Notes under the pieces: model-generated
What the model was told of the DNA's origin: nothing
Seen by the model: the letters and a program-made list of their open reading frames with translations, nothing else
Databases searched by the model: none
Virus record (IMG/VR): IMGVR_UViG_2671180473_000015
Direction: 5' to 3' (one strand)
DNA from: a virus
Taxonomy: Duplodnaviria; Heunggongvirae; Uroviricota; Caudoviricetes
Length of the DNA: 35,845 bases
Shown: positions 3,929 through 35,502 of the stretch, in pieces
How positions within the stretch are numbered: position 1 is the first letter of the stretch
Layout: the number at the start of each line of letters is the position of its first letter
Position numbers and translations under genes: made by a program

Positions 3929-3978
3929 AAAAAGAGCGGTACCAGCCGGAAGCAAGTGTACAAACTGGTACCGCCAAA
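3929..3978 (-). ncRNA. DicF-like small RNA candidate ending in an intrinsic terminator
   Basis: Minus-strand sequence TTTGGCGGTACCAGTTT...CTGGTACCGCTCTTTTT: an 11-bp stem (GGCGGTACCAG / CTGGTACCGCT, one G-U) followed by a U-run. Its 5' half closely resembles the core of DicF (TTTGGCGGTATCAGTTT) as I recall it. Located in the early-left operon downstream of the repressor gene, as DicF is in Qin. The 5' end is not determinable. Confidence 0.4.
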
Positions 3979-4406
3979 GCAGTGGCTGTTGTGGTGACCG
4001 GTGCTGATCTCCGGCTTGCGGTTATTTCAGACTCTCACGGGCGTTTAATTGCCCCGCCGAACAGCTCTTTTCCGCATTAGCTGCAATGTCTTTCGCGCAT
4101 CAGCCTGCGCATTCACCACAACGCTGAGAGCACTTAGCCAGTTACGGCACCACACTTTGTCGCGGTTCCATAAATGTCCTCATCGTTGCACCCTGGTCTC
4201 TTCCCAGGCGTCAAACCGAATCGCCACGCTGGTTAGGCGTCTTATCAGCATCATCATTGACTTGCACATTCCGGCTACCTGGTTTGTTTGCCCGAGCAAG
4301 GAGTGGATTGTCCCCTTTAACGTCCCCAGACCGCTAACGACGCATGTGCCATACGCCGTGTTACAACCAAATTTTGTTTAATCTTGCCTGTGCTGTGTTT
4401 CTTTTA

Positions 4407-14900: not shown

Positions 14901-15140
14901 NNNNNNNNNNNNNNNNNNNNNNNNNNNNNNNNNNNNNNNNNNNNNNNNNNNNNNNNNNNNNNNNNNNNNNNNNNNNNNNNNNNNNNNNNNNNNNNNNNNN
15001 NNNNNNNNNNNNNNNNNNNNNNNNNNNNNNNNNNNNNNNNNNNNNNNNNNNNNNNNNNNNNNNNNNNNNNNNNNNNNNNNNNNNNNNNNNNNNNNNNNNN
15101 NNNNNNNNNNNNNNNNNNNNNNNNNNNNNNNNNNNNNNNN
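14901..15140. other. N-run (240 nt) - assembly gap or masked sequence
   Basis: Continuous n characters; removes the holin 3' end and the holin-endolysin junction. Confidence 0.95.
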
Positions 15141-15207: not shown

Positions 15208-15741
15208 ATGAACGCAAAAATCAGATACGGCCTGTCGGCTGCCGTTCTGGCACTGATTGCCGTCGGTGCGCCCGCGCCTGATATTCTCGACCAGTTTCTG
15301 GATGAAAAAGAAGGTAACCACACAACGGCATACCGCGATGGGTCCGGCATCTGGACCATCTGTCGGGGTGCCACGATGGTGGATGGAAAACCCGTTTTTC
15401 CCGGTATGAAACTGTCGAAGGAAAAATGCGACCAGGTCAACGCCATTGAGCGTGATAAGGCGCTGGCATGGGTGGAGCGCAATATTAAAGTACCACTGAC
15501 CGAGCCACAAAAAGCGGGTATCGCGTCATTTTGTCCCTATAACATTGGCCCCGGTAAGTGTTTTCCGTCGACGTTTTATAAGCGGCTGAATGCTGGTGAT
15601 CGTAAAGGTGCATGCGAGGCGATTCGCTGGTGGATAAAAGATGGTGGGCGCGATTGCCGCATACGTTCAAATAACTGCTATGGACAGGTTATTCGTCGTG
15701 ACCAGGAAAGCGCATTAGCCTGTTGGGGGATAGATCAGTGA
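15208..15741 (+). CDS. R: SAR endolysin (signal-arrest-release lysozyme, R21-like)
   Basis: 177-aa ORF. N-terminal weakly hydrophobic SAR segment ([18 protein letters not shown]) followed by E-x8-D-x5-T catalytic spacing ([16 protein letters not shown]). Pairs functionally with the pinholin. Confidence 0.85.
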
Positions 15742-16205
15742 GCAGAGTCGCCGCGATTATTTATGCTCTGGTTATCTGCATCATCGTCTGCCTGTCGTGG
15801 GCGGTCAATCATTACCGTGATAACGCCATCGCCTACAAAGAACAGCGTGATAAAAAAGTCAGTGAGCTGAAGCAGGCGACCGCCACCATTACTGACATGC
15901 AGCAACGCCAGCGTGCTGCTGATGTACTCGATGCTAAATACACGAAGGAGTTGGCTGATGCGAAAGCTGAAAATGATGCTCTTCGGCGCAAGCTTGATAA
16001 TGGTGGTCGGGTGCTCGTCAAAGGAAAATGCCCTGTGCCATCCTCAGCCGAAACCTCCAGCGCCTCCGGCATGGGCAATGATGCCACCGTCGAACTCTCT
16101 CCAGTTGCTGGACGAAACGTTCTCGGTATCCGGGACGGAATCATCAGAGACCAGACAGCACTGAGAACGCTTCAGGAATATATCAGGACGCAATGCCTTC
16201 GATGA
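15738..16205 (+). CDS. Rz: Rz i-spanin
   Basis: GTG start overlapping the endolysin stop (GTGA). N-terminal TM segment ([17 protein letters not shown]) and coiled-coil-like periplasmic domain. Contains Rz1 in the +1 frame. Confidence 0.75.
15958..16164 (+). CDS. Rz1: Rz1 o-spanin (lipoprotein embedded in Rz)
   Basis: ATG at 15958 with strong SD AAGGAG 7 nt upstream. Signal peptide and lipobox ([21 protein letters not shown]) and a Pro-rich mature region ([16 protein letters not shown]). Fully inside Rz in a different frame. Confidence 0.75.
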
Positions 16206-16379
16206 TAGCGATAATTTTACTCATCATCCTTCACATTTGGCTCTGTAGACAGGGTGGTGATCACTTCTGGAGTGAATCCAGATTAAACATCTCATTGCTG
16301 ATGCTTGAAGTTGAGCATCTGGCGCGCGGTAAGGGGCTGCGTTGAAATAAGAGCCAGTCATTAAAAATACCTGGATTTA

Positions 16380-16405
16380 GCCTCGCATTCGCGGGGCTTT
16401 TTATT
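16380..16405 (+). terminator. candidate rho-independent terminator downstream of the lysis cassette
   Basis: Stem GCCTCGC / GCGGGGC (one G-U) with loop ATTC followed by TTTTT. A second perfect 8-bp hairpin (AGCCACTC / GAGTGGCT) follows at about 16417-16438. Confidence 0.4.
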
Positions 16406-16889
16406 GCCATTACAAAAGCCACTCCCTACAGAGTGGCTTTGATAATGGCTTATACCCTACACGGGATAACTTAACTGATATCCCTTTTAACGGATAAAGG
16501 TATTCAAGCCTGACACATCATGCGCTGTATCGTCGCCGTATTCCCGTATTAACAGAGACCGTAGCCCGACGGGGAACTCCTTCTGCGAGAGTGTGCGGGA
16601 ATAATCAAAAACGATGCACACCGGGTTTTTACCGCGTTTATGGTTCGCGGGTTTGTCCCTCATGCTCGCCAGTCCTGTGCGGGGGTGGAAGAAACAGGAT
16701 ACTCACACAGATTCTTGTGGGCACGATGCTATTCCTTTCTGGATTATCCCGATGCCATTCATGCAAGGCGCTGTATCAGACGTTCGTCATGTCTGTCAGG
16801 CTGACGGGTCCTCCCGGTGGAGTGGCCTGCCACGGGGCGGGAGCGTCGCGGAAAAAGGCTAGTTTTTGAAATTTCATTCGTCATCACCA

Positions 16890-16917
16890 CCACTGTAATA
16901 GATTGATATTACAGTGG
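16890..16917. repeat. perfect 11-bp inverted repeat upstream of the terminase genes
   Basis: CCACTGTAATA-GATTGA-TATTACAGTGG followed by a T-rich tract. About 100 bp upstream of the terminase small-subunit start. Could be a terminator or a protein-binding/packaging-related site. Confidence 0.5.
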
Positions 16918-17020
16918 TTTTGTTTTTATGGTGTCGATTTTGATTGTTTTTTGTTCATCACTAACACCGTTTGCCTAAAGTTGTTCGCGAGATGCATGTT
17001 TAAAACATTCTGGAGCGGGT

Positions 17021-17515
17021 ATGGATCGAGAGTTAAAAAATCTGACGCTGAATATCAGTCAACTGGCGGCACTGTCAGGTGTACATCGCCAGACTGCTGC
17101 GGCAAGGCTGCAAAATCTACCCGTTGCAGGGGGGCATGAAAGCAACCTCAAGCTTTATCGGGTGGTTGATATTGTGTCGGCATTTCTGGCATTGCCACCG
17201 CCGGTTGCAGAAGGCGAAATGGACGCGCATGAGCGCAAAGCCTGGTATCAGTCTGAACGTGAGCGTCTTAAGTTCGAACAGGAAACGGCACAACTCATTC
17301 CGGCCAGTGATGTCAGACGGGAGTTTGCCATCTGGGCAAAAGCGGTCGTGCAGGTGCTGGAGACATTACCGGATATTCTGGAACGTGACTGCGGTCTGCA
17401 GCCTGCCGCTGTGAGCCGTGTTCAGTCCATTATTGATGATCTGCGCGATCAGATAGCCCTGCGGGTGACTGAAGCAGGTGCGGATGATGAGGAGGAATTA
17501 CAGCAGGAGGAGTAA
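17021..17515 (+). CDS. terminase small subunit (Nu1-like HTH DNA-recognition protein)
   Basis: 164-aa ORF with SD GGAG upstream. N-terminal HTH (LNISQLAALSGVHRQTAAARLQNLPV) resembling Nu1-type small subunits. Acidic C-terminus. Stop overlaps the large-subunit start. Confidence 0.7.
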   Translation: MDRELKNLTLNISQLAALSGVHRQTAAARLQNLPVAGGHESNLKLYRVVDIVSAFLALPPPVAEGEMDAHERKAWYQSERERLKFEQETAQLIPASDVRREFAIWAKAVVQVLETLPDILERDCGLQPAAVSRVQSIIDDLRDQIALRVTEAGADDEEELQQEE

Positions 17516-19617
17516 TGCTGAATCAGGAAACCGCAAAGGCAGCACGAACCGATTCAGGTTATATCCTTCGCGCACCGAGACGAATGCGGGTTGCTGATGC
17601 CGTTGCTCAGTATATGCGGGTGCCCATGGGGGCAGGGAACTCAGTCCCGTGGGATCCGCTGGTGGCACCGTATGTTATTGAGCCGATGAACTGCCTGGCC
17701 TCGCGTGAATACGACGCAGTGATATTTGTTGGCCCGGCACGAACCGGCAAGACTATCGGCCTGATTGACGGCTGGGTGATTTACAACGTGATTTGCGATC
17801 CTGCTGATATGCTGATCATTCAGATGACGGAGGAAAAAGCCCGCGAACACTCCAAAAAACGACTCGCCAGAACGTTTCGCGTCAGCCCGGAAGTGGTCAG
17901 TCGCCTGAGTCCGAACAAAAATGACAACAACGTTTATGACAGAACATTCCTTGCTGGTAACTACCTGAAAATCGGCTGGCCGTCAGTCAATATCATGTCC
18001 TCATCAGATTATAAATGCGTCGCGCTGACGGATTATGACCGTTTTCCGGAAGATATTGATGGCGAGGGGGATGCTTTCTCTCTTGCCTCAAAACGTACCA
18101 CAACATTTATGTCCAGTGGTATGACGCTTGTGGAGAGTTCCCCCGGCAGGGATGTGAAGGATGTGAAATGGCGACGGACTTCACCGCATGAGGCTCCACC
18201 AACCACGGGGATACTGTCGCTCTATAACCGTGGCGATCGCCGTCGCTGGTACTGGCCCTGTCCACACTGTGGTGAGTATTTTCAGCCCTGCGGCGATGTG
18301 GTTGCTGGTTTCCGTGATATTGCCGATCCCGTGCTGGCAAGTGAGGCGGCTTATATTCAGTGTCCTTCCTGTTCAGGACGGATTATGCCTGAACACAAAC
18401 GTGAGCTGAACGGACGTGGGGTCTGGTTGCGGGATGGTGAATCCATCAATGCGGATGGCAGTCGTTATGGTGATCCCCGACGCTCACGTATTGCGTCATT
18501 CTGGATGGAGGGTCCGGCAGCTGCTTACCAGACACTCTCGCAACTCGTTTACAAACTGCTTACTGCAGAACAGGAATACGAGACAACCGGAAGTGAAGAA
18601 ACACTCAAGACGGTTATCAATACCGACTGGGGATTACCTTATCTTCCCCGCGCCAGCATGGAGCAACGAAAAAGTGAACTGCTTGAGCAGCGGGCAGAGC
18701 CAGTTCCTTCCCGCAGTGTGCCGGATGGCGTTAATTTCCTTGTGGCGACAGTGGATGTGCAGGCGGGACGTCATCGCCGTTTTGTGGTTCAGGTAACGGG
18801 CTATGGCAGCCGTGGCGAACGCTGGATTATTGATCGTTACAACATCACGCAGTCATTGCGCGGTGACAGCGACGGGGAGAGCCAGCGAATTGATCCGGCC
18901 AGCTATCCGGAAGACTGGGATGTCCTGCTGACGGATGTTTTTCATAAAAGCTGGCCGCTGGCCTCCGATCCTTCTCAACAAATGCGACTGATGGCAATGG
19001 CGGTGGACTCCGGCGGTGAAGACGGGGTCACTGATAATGCCTATAAATTCTGGCGTCGTTGCCGTCGTGATGGCCTTGGTAAACGTATTTACCTGTTTAA
19101 GGGCGACAGCATCCGGCGCGCAAAACTGATCACCCGTACATTCCCTGATAACACCGGACGAACGGGCCGACGGGCGCAGGCCGCAGGTGATGTGCCGCTC
19201 TGGCTTCTTCAGACGGATGCACTGAAAGACCGGGTGAATAACGCGTTATGGCGTGACTCGCCAGGTCCCGGCTATGTGCATTTCCCTGACTGGCTGGGGA
19301 GCTGGTTTTACGACGAACTGACGTATGAAGAGCGGAGCAGTGACGGGAAATGGAGTAAGCCGGGTCGCGGTGCCAACGAAGCTTTTGACCTGATGGTGTA
19401 TGCCGAGGCTCTGGTCATTCTGCATGGATACGAAAAGATCCGCTGGCCGGATGCACCGGAGTGGGCGAGCCGGGAAACCTGGCTGGAGTGTGTCCCGGAC
19501 AGTACCGAACCGTCACCCTCACCGGAACCGGTATCCACGCCTGTTAAAAAACAAAAACGGAAGAAAACAGTAACTGACGATGTTAACCCCTGGCTGACTT
19601 CCGGAGGATGGTTATGA
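17515..19617 (+). CDS. terminase large subunit (lambda gpA family)
   Basis: 700-aa ORF. Walker A-like FVGPARTGKT. Size and C-terminal similarity to lambda gpA from memory. Start overlaps the small-subunit stop. Confidence 0.9.
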   Translation: MLNQETAKAARTDSGYILRAPRRMRVADAVAQYMRVPMGAGNSVPWDPLVAPYVIEPMNCLASREYDAVIFVGPARTGKTIGLIDGWVIYNVICDPADMLIIQMTEEKAREHSKKRLARTFRVSPEVVSRLSPNKNDNNVYDRTFLAGNYLKIGWPSVNIMSSSDYKCVALTDYDRFPEDIDGEGDAFSLASKRTTTFMSSGMTLVESSPGRDVKDVKWRRTSPHEAPPTTGILSLYNRGDRRRWYWPCPHCGEYFQPCGDVVAGFRDIADPVLASEAAYIQCPSCSGRIMPEHKRELNGRGVWLRDGESINADGSRYGDPRRSRIASFWMEGPAAAYQTLSQLVYKLLTAEQEYETTGSEETLKTVINTDWGLPYLPRASMEQRKSELLEQRAEPVPSRSVPDGVNFLVATVDVQAGRHRRFVVQVTGYGSRGERWIIDRYNITQSLRGDSDGESQRIDPASYPEDWDVLLTDVFHKSWPLASDPSQQMRLMAMAVDSGGEDGVTDNAYKFWRRCRRDGLGKRIYLFKGDSIRRAKLITRTFPDNTGRTGRRAQAAGDVPLWLLQTDALKDRVNNALWRDSPGPGYVHFPDWLGSWFYDELTYEERSSDGKWSKPGRGANEAFDLMVYAEALVILHGYEKIRWPDAPEWASRETWLECVPDSTEPSPSPEPVSTPVKKQKRKKTVTDDVNPWLTSGGWL

Positions 19618-31294: not shown

Positions 31295-31896
31295 AAACGG
31301 GGTCCGAAGCCATCCGGGCGCTGGCCATGCAGATCCCGGCGTTTCGTCAGAAACTGAATGAGGGCTGGTATCAGGTGCGCATTGCCGGGCGTGATGCAGG
31401 CGAAAATGAATTATCTGCCCGTCTTAATGAGCCGCTGGCAAATGGTGCCGTGATCCACATCGTGCCGCGTCTGGCGGGAGCTAAAAGTGGCGGTGTGTTT
31501 CAGGTGGTGCTTGGGGCGGCGCTGATTGCGGTGGCATGGTGGAACCCTGTGGGCTGGCTGGGGNNNNNNNNNNNNNNNNNNNNNNNNNNNNNNNNNNNNN
31601 NNNNNNNNNNNNNNNNNNNNNNNNNNNNNNNNNNNNNNNNNNNNNNNNNNNNNNNNNNNNNNNNNNNNNNNNNNNNNNNNNNNNNNNNNNNNNNNNNNNN
31701 NNNNNNNNNNNNNNNNNNNNNNNNNNNNNNNNNNNNNNNNNNNNNNNNNNNNNNNNNNNNNNNNNNNNNNNNNNNNNNNNNNNNNNNNNNNNNNNNNNNN
31801 NNNNNNNNNNNNNNNNNNNNNNNNNNNNNNNNNNNNNNNNNNNTCAGCACGGCAGACGAAGGGGATGGTGGTCAGGTTGTGGTGATTGGTCGCTGA
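31192..31896 (+). CDS. I: tail assembly protein I (interrupted by an N-run)
   Basis: Starts MAATHTLPLASPGMARICLYGDLQRFGRRIDLRV as in lambda I. Overlaps the 3' end of K in another frame, as in lambda. The middle is lost in the N-run 31564-31843. Ends ...STADEGDGGQVVVIGR. Confidence 0.75.
   Translation: MAATHTLPLASPGMARICLYGDLQRFGRRIDLRVKTGSEAIRALAMQIPAFRQKLNEGWYQVRIAGRDAGENELSARLNEPLANGAVIHIVPRLAGAKSGGVFQVVLGAALIAVAWWNPVGWLGXXXXXXXXXXXXXXXXXXXXXXXXXXXXXXXXXXXXXXXXXXXXXXXXXXXXXXXXXXXXXXXXXXXXXXXXXXXXXXXXXXXXXXXXXXXXXXSTADEGDGGQVVVIGR
31564..31843. other. N-run (280 nt) - assembly gap or masked sequence
   Basis: Continuous n characters inside gene I. Confidence 0.95.

Positions 31897-31956: not shown

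Positions 31957-35502
<3,546 letters not shown>

Follow-up and report, generated by a model that had tools for sequence, protein, structure and literature searches.

The 215 bp directly upstream of the small-terminase gene (positions 16806-17020) are very probably the lambda-type cohesive-end site (cos) of the phage analysed here, whose DNA was examined as a single window of 35,845 nucleotides. This assignment is based on sequence identities with lambda, on the uniqueness of the pattern in the window, on its conservation among relatives, on its coincidence with the ends of deposited genomes, and on the families to which the two terminase subunits belong. The first-pass annotation had proposed a packaging (cos) region between the lysis and terminase genes, and this location is supported. 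The features listed there were confirmed, all of them being recovered at most 1-2 nt from where they had been placed. Its interpretation of the site as a different type of cos, of a palindrome as the key element and of a 58-aa ORF as a real gene was not supported. What is described here is an ordinary example of a familiar type of site, and the value of the result lies mainly in the correction of annotation.

Genomic context and distribution

The window derives from a lambdoid prophage of E. coli. Between its lysis and terminase genes lies a region of 815 bp (16206-17020) that is 100% identical to E. coli CDF6 and 99.9% identical to E. coli A14. Of the 5426 complete E. coli genomes, 767 contain at least 80% of it. 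The nearest phages over the region are vB_EcoS-569R4 (98%), mEp460 (97%) and Ayreon (96%). The genes are arranged in the following order.

Methylase
Holin (partly masked by N)
15208-15741: endolysin
15723-16205: Rz
16206-17020: the 815-bp region
17021-17515: 164-aa protein
17515-19617: 700-aa protein
gpW-like protein
Portal

The gap is thus as described earlier, with the end of Rz at 16205 and the start of the small-terminase ORF at 17021. It was also fair to call it free of confident genes, since the NCBI pipeline predicts just two small hypothetical proteins there, at 16193-16345 (plus strand) and 16487-16663 (minus strand).

cosQ and cosN

The earlier search had not found the lambda 12-mer GGGCGGCGACCT, and the region indeed holds no match to it even at three mismatches. 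What was overlooked, about 55 bases to the left of the palindrome, is a variant with four mismatches, GGGCGGGAGCGT, with the lambda flanks. [quoted passage not shown]

16806-16812, plus strand: cosQ, GGGTCCT, corresponding to the last GGGTCCT 7-mer before the lambda right end
16835-16846, plus strand: cosN cohesive-end sequence GGGCGGGAGCGT, located by the composite pattern and by record ends
16847-16867 (bp 13-33), plus strand: cosN-proximal block CGCGGAAAAAGGCTAGTTTTT, kept in Enterobacterales and Pasteurellaceae relatives
16881-16893 (bp 47-59), plus strand: R3-like candidate small-terminase site TCATCACCACCAC, assigned by the lambda/N15 offset and by covariation with the recognition helix
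16889-16918 (bp 55-84), no strand assigned: perfect 12-bp palindrome with a 6-nt spacer, followed by TTTTGTTTTT
16896-16908, minus strand: I1-like candidate IHF site TATCAATCTATTA, a perfect match to WATCAANNNNTTR
16928-16937, minus strand: R2-like candidate site, inverted, ATGGTGTCGA (reverse complement TCGACACCAT), assigned from the alignment of relatives
16955-16964, plus strand: R1-like candidate site TCATCACTAA, assigned from the same alignment
17021-17515, plus strand: small terminase, DUF1441 (Pfam PF07278, E 2.7e-41; phrog_141 'terminase small subunit')
17515-19617, plus strand: large terminase of the lambda gpA family (Pfam GpA_ATPase PF05876 and GpA_nuclease PF20454)

The junction of the window reads GGGTCCT CCCGGTGGAGTGGCCTGCCACG GGGCGGGAGCGT CGCGG, with CCACG as the left flank of the cohesive end, and that of lambda reads GGGTCCT TTCCGGTGATCCGACAGGTTACG GGGCGGCGACCT CGCGG, with TTACG as the left flank. 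The lambda GGGTCCT is its cosQ. The distance from cosQ to the nick is 22 bp in the window and 23 bp in lambda. The ACG| and |CGCGG flanks are identical in both, and GGGCGGGAGCGT agrees with the lambda end at 8 of 12 positions (1-6, 10 and 12), including the whole left half, and differs at positions 7, 8, 9 and 11. Since cosQ, cosN and their spacing are those of lambda, and the cohesive end is a single base away from that of Gifsy-1, the suggestion of a different type of cos is not supported. In the 35.8-kb window the composite cosQ-cosN pattern has a single occurrence, and 100 shuffles yielded none. By analogy with lambda, the nicks would fall at 16834/16835 on the top strand and at 16846/16847 on the bottom strand, producing a 12-nt 5' overhang. 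Counting against the lambda-type assignment is the two-fold symmetry of cosN, which extends to 8 of 16 positions in the window and to 10 of 16 in lambda.

Among 88 close relatives the 12-mer of the window is present in 66, and in the variants all changes fall at positions 7, 11 or 12. cosQ is near-invariant even where its flanks differ. The same regularity has been published: cosN varies in its right half, whereas cosQ is highly conserved (PMC4669245). The exact cosN 33-mer was found in at least 120 viral contigs, and every match is internal to a prophage-derived contig. A literature search for the exact cohesive-end sequence returned no relevant paper.

Genome ends in related phage records

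The records of phages cdtI and Tritos both start with GGGCGGGAGCGTCGCGGAAAAAGGCTAGTTTTT, which equals 16835-16867 of the window, and both finish with ...CCTGCCACG, which equals the window up to 16834. The cdtI record is circular and numbered from the cohesive-end base, and the Tritos record is linear. These ends, which may have been measured or set by analogy, coincide exactly with the top-strand nick placed above. In the LLS record bases 1-12 are annotated as the cohesive site, GGGCGGCGCGCT, with the layout seen in the window, and its authors report that reads did not span cos. The mEp460_4F5 record is broken 5 nt to the left of the site and has lost integrity within cosN through a 3-nt defect, which would be expected close to physical ends. 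The starts of the mEp460 and Ayreon records (16996 of the window) were also considered as genome ends and rejected as arbitrary openings at the small-terminase gene, as the authors of Ayreon state explicitly for their phage; cos is annotated in none of the mEp460, Ayreon and vB_EcoS-569R4 records. The search was validated on Gifsy-1, where it yielded GGGCGGCAGCGT, which is unlike the lambda end at positions 8, 9 and 11, the same differences described by Feiss and colleagues (PMC4669245).

Terminase subunits and cosB

The large terminase shows 25% identity to lambda gpA (E 8e-19), and a gpA-type enzyme predicts lambda-style cohesive ends. Headful (pac) packaging fits neither this type of large terminase nor the fixed ends in the related records. 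The small terminase does not belong to the Nu1 family, as its Pfam assignment is DUF1441 rather than Phage_Nu1 and BLASTP against lambda Nu1 gave an E value of 20. The site is a lambda-like cos in Feiss's sense, departing only in the Nu1 protein family. An AlphaFold model of the small terminase (mean pLDDT 79.8) has a strand-helix-helix-wing-helix N-terminus, a predicted winged helix-turn-helix; locally this fold comes closest to MerR-like domains and other winged HTH domains that bind DNA, with no match reaching significance, and a sequence search of the PDB with this protein found nothing.

To describe cosB, 50-odd loci with DUF1441 small terminases from other species, ranging from 100% to about 45% identity, were aligned with cosN as the anchor. 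The layout is fixed in the alignment. The CGCGGnAAnCGGCTAGTTTTT block occupies bp 13-33, and a short repeat is found three times, at bp 46-59, inverted at bp 94-103, and again in direct orientation at bp 117-130. Between the first two copies, at bp 62-74 of the minus strand, lies an IHF-like core. For comparison, R3 lies at bp 50-65 in lambda and at bp 48-59 in N15. Thus lambda-style cosB repeats, with an IHF site between R3 and R2, appear to be present in the window.

The short repeat changes with the protein. Across relatives, the predicted recognition helix HRQT pairs with a CATCAT or CATCAC repeat, NRNx with GCAGCAGCA, and HRDT (the cdtI type) with GGCGGCAGCA; the repeats of Gifsy-2 are CAGCACTGA, CAGTGTCGA and CGACACTGA. 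The assignment of the repeats as terminase-binding sites draws its main independent support from this covariation. The clustering of R motifs is no independent test, because these same three sites were used to derive the degenerate motif. As for IHF, a search for its sites had been recommended, and the consensus matches only three positions in 35.8 kb, one of them at 16896-16908. The best IHF-like match of the enterobacterial relatives lies at the same position (bp 62-64) and on the same strand, and a score of at least 8/9 is reached in 55% of them versus 4% of background windows. From lambda, the small terminase is predicted to bind at the R sites and IHF at the core.

The palindrome

The inverted repeat had been reported as an 11-bp perfect palindrome; it is present, and its arms are one base pair longer, 12 bp (ACCACTGTAATA at 16889-16900 and TATTACAGTGGT at 16907-16918). 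A perfect inverted repeat of at least 12 bp appeared in none of 2000 shuffles of the 815-bp region. The palindrome extends from the final five bases of R3, across the entire IHF core, into the beginning of the T run. The T runs noted next to it are likewise there (16918-21, 16923-27, 16938-41, 16947-52), with a phasing that is only loose. Of the 88 loci that share the small terminase, 11 have perfect palindrome arms; the rest carry one to four mismatches, or seven in two loci, one of which (L014) has an identical small terminase, and no compensating changes are seen. In relatives further away, R3, the IHF core, R2 and R1 are retained and the dyad is not.

These data bear directly on the view that the palindrome itself is the packaging recognition site, with a DUF1441 dimer bound on its two arms in a non-lambda cos. 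The repeat is far beyond chance, its left arm begins at bp 55, where the lambda small terminase contacts R3 (bp 55-63), and the small terminase is of another sequence family than Nu1. However, since it is perfect in only 11 of the 88 relatives, the palindrome is not the conserved recognition element; its mismatches are uncompensated, the distant relatives lack the dyad, and cosQ and cosN are plainly those of lambda, which together make this view highly improbable. Nor is it supported as the key element that it had been taken for: most relatives whose small terminase is identical have an eroded palindrome, whereas the (CAY)4 R3 motif and the IHF core, both overlapped by it, are kept. We read the palindrome as a lineage-specific extension of a partial dyad around the IHF core. 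It is possible, if doubtful, that palindrome and T run also form an intrinsic terminator that prevents non-antiterminated transcripts from the lysis side or the filler from entering the head genes. A terminator scan flags the 12-bp stem, the 6-nt loop and TTTTGTTTTT, the RNA fold (-19.4 kcal/mol, z -4.2) is well below shuffled controls, and the T run varies at a single position among close relatives; but the stem is A+U-rich with just four G-C pairs, its mismatches are uncompensated, and distant relatives have no consistent hairpin there. Two elements, 16379-16398 and 16889-16918, pass the scan for terminator form (a stem-loop with G+C, then a T run), and as 1.5 are expected from shuffles, the scan shows form only. 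A terminator role would be compatible with the position inside cosB, in addition to the packaging role and not instead of it.

The region to the left of cos

The remaining 600 bp (16206-16805) are recombination-prone filler between the lysis cassette and cos, with ORFs that are probably chance or decayed. Among loci with the same small terminase, homology is lost at recurrent points, namely about 16405, 16521, 16634-16642, 16802-16806 and 16831-16835; the last two correspond to the cosQ start and to cosN. The main features of this part are as follows.

16193-16345, plus strand: 50-aa ORF over the Rz stop with a hydrophobic N-terminus, a candidate gene (phrog_11822; PGAP WP_001139681)
16379-16405, plus strand: hairpin 1 and T run, terminator-like, at the end of the lysis module (terminator scan and fold)
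16406-16449, no strand assigned: hairpin 2, a long imperfect inverted repeat with 19-nt arms and the better T tail on the minus strand
16487-16663, minus strand: 58-aa ORF, lying across the block common to lambda and DLP12
16521-16628, no strand assigned: bor-flank block, about 82% identical by BLAST to lambda 46868-46974 and K-12 DLP12 579009-579116, both of them segments that carry no annotated feature

The two consecutive hairpins noted at the first reading were both found, at 16379-16398 and 16406-16449. Hairpin 1 has an 8-bp stem (16379-16398) followed by TTTTTATT (-15.4 kcal/mol, z -2.9), and module boundaries recur near it, at about 16404-16407, in related loci. Hairpin 2 folds at -26.8 kcal/mol on the plus strand and -30.1 kcal/mol on the minus strand (z -8.8 and -7.3); it was annotated as a terminator by the authors of Ayreon and has a recurrent mosaic junction at its left edge. 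The segment 16100-16404, with the Rz end, the 50-aa ORF and hairpin 1, travels with HK620-type lysis cassettes. The 50-aa ORF, a part of this module, is unannotated in HK620; its variable sites by codon position are 4/4/7, and it contains a stop in 1 of 27 loci. The plus-strand ORFs at 16591-16869 were rejected as genes: three frames are open, substitutions are random with respect to codons, and relatives have stops and frameshifts. These ORFs are annotated as hypothetical in mEp460 and as 'putative late gene regulator' in Ayreon.

The 58-aa minus-strand ORF exists exactly as first described (16487..16663). It had been considered a real small gene in the slot where lambda carries bor, and the search for homologues of the peptide recommended with that proposal recovered them only in Escherichia and Shigella, with lengths of 35-91 aa. 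No Pfam or PHROG match and no resemblance to Bor was found, and at the DNA level the similarity, which involves the middle of the ORF, is to the segment next to bor and not to the bor gene. The ORF is disrupted in 7 of 35 related loci (five with a stop at codon 9 and two with frameshifts), and its variable sites are distributed 7/4/8 over the codon positions, close to random, versus 30/13/112 in the large-terminase control. An indel breaks the frame in the lambda alignment, and the frame is not kept in the lambda/DLP12 segment. The ORF is therefore probably not a protein-coding gene. That it could nevertheless be a lysogenic-conversion 'moron' gene ending at hairpin 2 is improbable: it was annotated by the NCBI pipeline and in one phage record, it is followed downstream by hairpin 2, which has the better of its T tails on the minus strand, and the synonymous fraction is 0.45 versus 0.24 expected for random changes, but in addition to the disruptions, the codon-position pattern, the restricted homologues and the lost frame, a frequent recombination junction (16634-16642) cuts the ORF, and no promoter-like site lies upstream.

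The shared block admits another explanation, in which the block (16521-16628) and hairpin 2 are a remnant of, or produce an sRNA from, the bor promoter region after loss of bor. In favour of this are its 82% identity, its shared orientation and its equivalent position immediately upstream of bor or borD, as well as the strong hairpin in the window where bor would be. However, the minus strand has no promoter-like match, no Rfam family is matched, and functionless shared ancestry accounts equally well for the identity, so that we consider such a remnant unlikely. In the Rfam search of 15500-17600 at a permissive threshold only three weak matches appeared, all far below the gathering scores. Another candidate was sRNA-17, which is reported from an mEp460-like prophage of E. 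coli K1; it maps to window positions 3967-3996, outside the region. Similarly, there is little probability that the dyad has a dual use, as cosB on DNA and as an RNA terminator shielding the head operon, or that the bor-flank block and hairpin 2 form a prophage sRNA; conservation supports neither.

Proposed packaging mechanism

During lytic growth, the small terminase would bind the three short cosB repeats, R3, inverted R2 and R1, while host IHF would bend the DNA between R3 and R2. The gpA-type large terminase would thereby be placed to nick both strands of cosN, 12 bases apart, leaving 5' overhangs of GGGCGGGAGCGT that start at 16835. When the motor reaches the next cos on the concatemer, cosQ (16806-16812) would act as the signal for the terminating cut.

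The assignment would fix the genome ends for a widespread E. coli prophage group, and likewise for mEp460 and Ayreon, whose records were opened arbitrarily with cos unmarked. It also suggests that the DUF1441 small-terminase family uses the R3-IHF-R2-R1 layout of lambda with a repeat sequence of its own. For specialists in lambda packaging nothing here is surprising. The same cosQ-cosN block occurs together with at least two different cosB/small-terminase specificities, which fits cos as a module boundary in lambdoid mosaicism.

Comparison with known phages

In lambda the order and orientation of R3, the IHF site, inverted R2 and R1 are as in the window, at similar offsets, and the first codon of the small-terminase gene lies at bp 191 compared with bp 187 in the window; the R sequences, however, are unrelated (CGTTTCC in lambda versus the TCATCAC type). 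The phages mEp460, Ayreon and vB_EcoS-569R4 share 93-98% identity over the whole region and have an identical or near-identical small terminase. cdtI (AB285204) and Tritos (OV696610) agree with the window at every base between the start of cosQ and bp 33 of the left end. They too encode DUF1441 small terminases, but these are only 42% identical to that of the window and have another predicted recognition helix, and from bp 34 on their cosB, with a GGCGGCGGCA-type motif, is unrelated to that of the window.

The Salmonella phage Gifsy-1 has a cohesive end, GGGCGGCAGCGT, whose sole difference from that of the window is at position 7, and it likewise has cosQ and a complex cosB; in contrast to the window, its small terminase is of the Nu1 type and its R sequences are lambda/21-like. 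LLS, mEp213 and Gifsy-2 have DUF1441 small terminases with 47-58% identity to that of the window (58% for LLS), and their layout is the same: cosQ, cosN, the CGCGG..GGCTAGTTTTT block, R3, an IHF-like core, inverted R2 and R1. Their R motifs differ from those of the window, being CATCATCAT in LLS-type relatives and CAGCACTGA in Gifsy-2, their cosB is shorter, with the first codon at bp 130, and the cohesive end of LLS is GGGCGGCGCGCT. The window thus appears to combine cosQ and cosN identical to those of cdtI and Tritos, and nearly those of Gifsy-1, with a cosB adapted to a small terminase of the DUF1441 family, like the cosB of LLS, mEp213 and Gifsy-2.

cos as a probable module boundary

Counting from the start of the cosN cohesive end, the block running from cosQ through bp 33 is common to the window (16835-16867 compared), phage cdtI (1-33) and phage Tritos (1-33). 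It is the same in all of them, yet it adjoins two unrelated cosB sequences, one in the window and the other in cdtI and Tritos, and the small terminases behind it share only 42% identity between the window and these two phages. Among the related loci, breaks in homology recur precisely at cosQ and at cosN. Because one block is joined to two cosB sequences and to such divergent small terminases, and because the breaks recur at these two sites, cos looks like a point where recombination joins the lysis-side module to the head-side module.

In the mEp460 record (1-60, compared with window 17021-17050), the start codon of the small terminase is ACG and the A6 run has one A fewer; therefore, the small terminase is annotated there from an upstream ATG and has a different N-terminus. 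Either a genuine variant or an error in sequencing could explain the difference.

Lysis-side sequences

Features on this side include:

16193-16345, +, 50-aa ORF, a possible gene, overlapping the Rz stop codon, with a hydrophobic N-terminus; annotated by PGAP and included in PHROG 11822

16521-16628, block of ~108 bp, 82% conserved among the window, lambda (46868-46974) and K-12 DLP12 (579009-579116)

Phage HK620 carries the same DNA as window 16193-16345, but the 50-aa ORF is not annotated there. The ~108-bp block, which bears no annotated feature in lambda and DLP12, always lies immediately upstream of bor in these two, whereas the window lacks bor and has a strong hairpin at that position. 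A recurrent mosaic junction coincides with the position of hairpin 2 (16406-16449), a long imperfect inverted repeat, and a second copy of this hairpin, 84% identical, was found in one related viral contig. Hairpin 2 may act as a terminator that moves between genomes, or mark a hotspot of recombination.

Other features of the window

Far outside the cos region, 3967-3996 (+) exactly matches 30 nt of sRNA-17, a small RNA that is modulated by ArcA in E. coli K1 RS218 and was reported from an mEp460-like prophage (PMC7719688). Masked sequence (N runs) occupies the following positions:

14901-15140
30118
31564-31843
32455-32681
34451-34666

Since the run at 14901-15140 falls within the holin and upstream-lysis region, the ORFs listed there are artefacts.

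cos of Pasteurellaceae prophages

The Haemophilus, Pasteurella and Mannheimia relatives (Pasteurellaceae prophages, L050-L065) keep a cosQ variant, GGTACTCC, together with a cosN-like GGGTTnCGG and a sequence resembling R3, CATCATCATC. In these prophages cosB spans no more than about 97-126 bp and lacks an IHF-like core; such a simpler cosB recalls N15.
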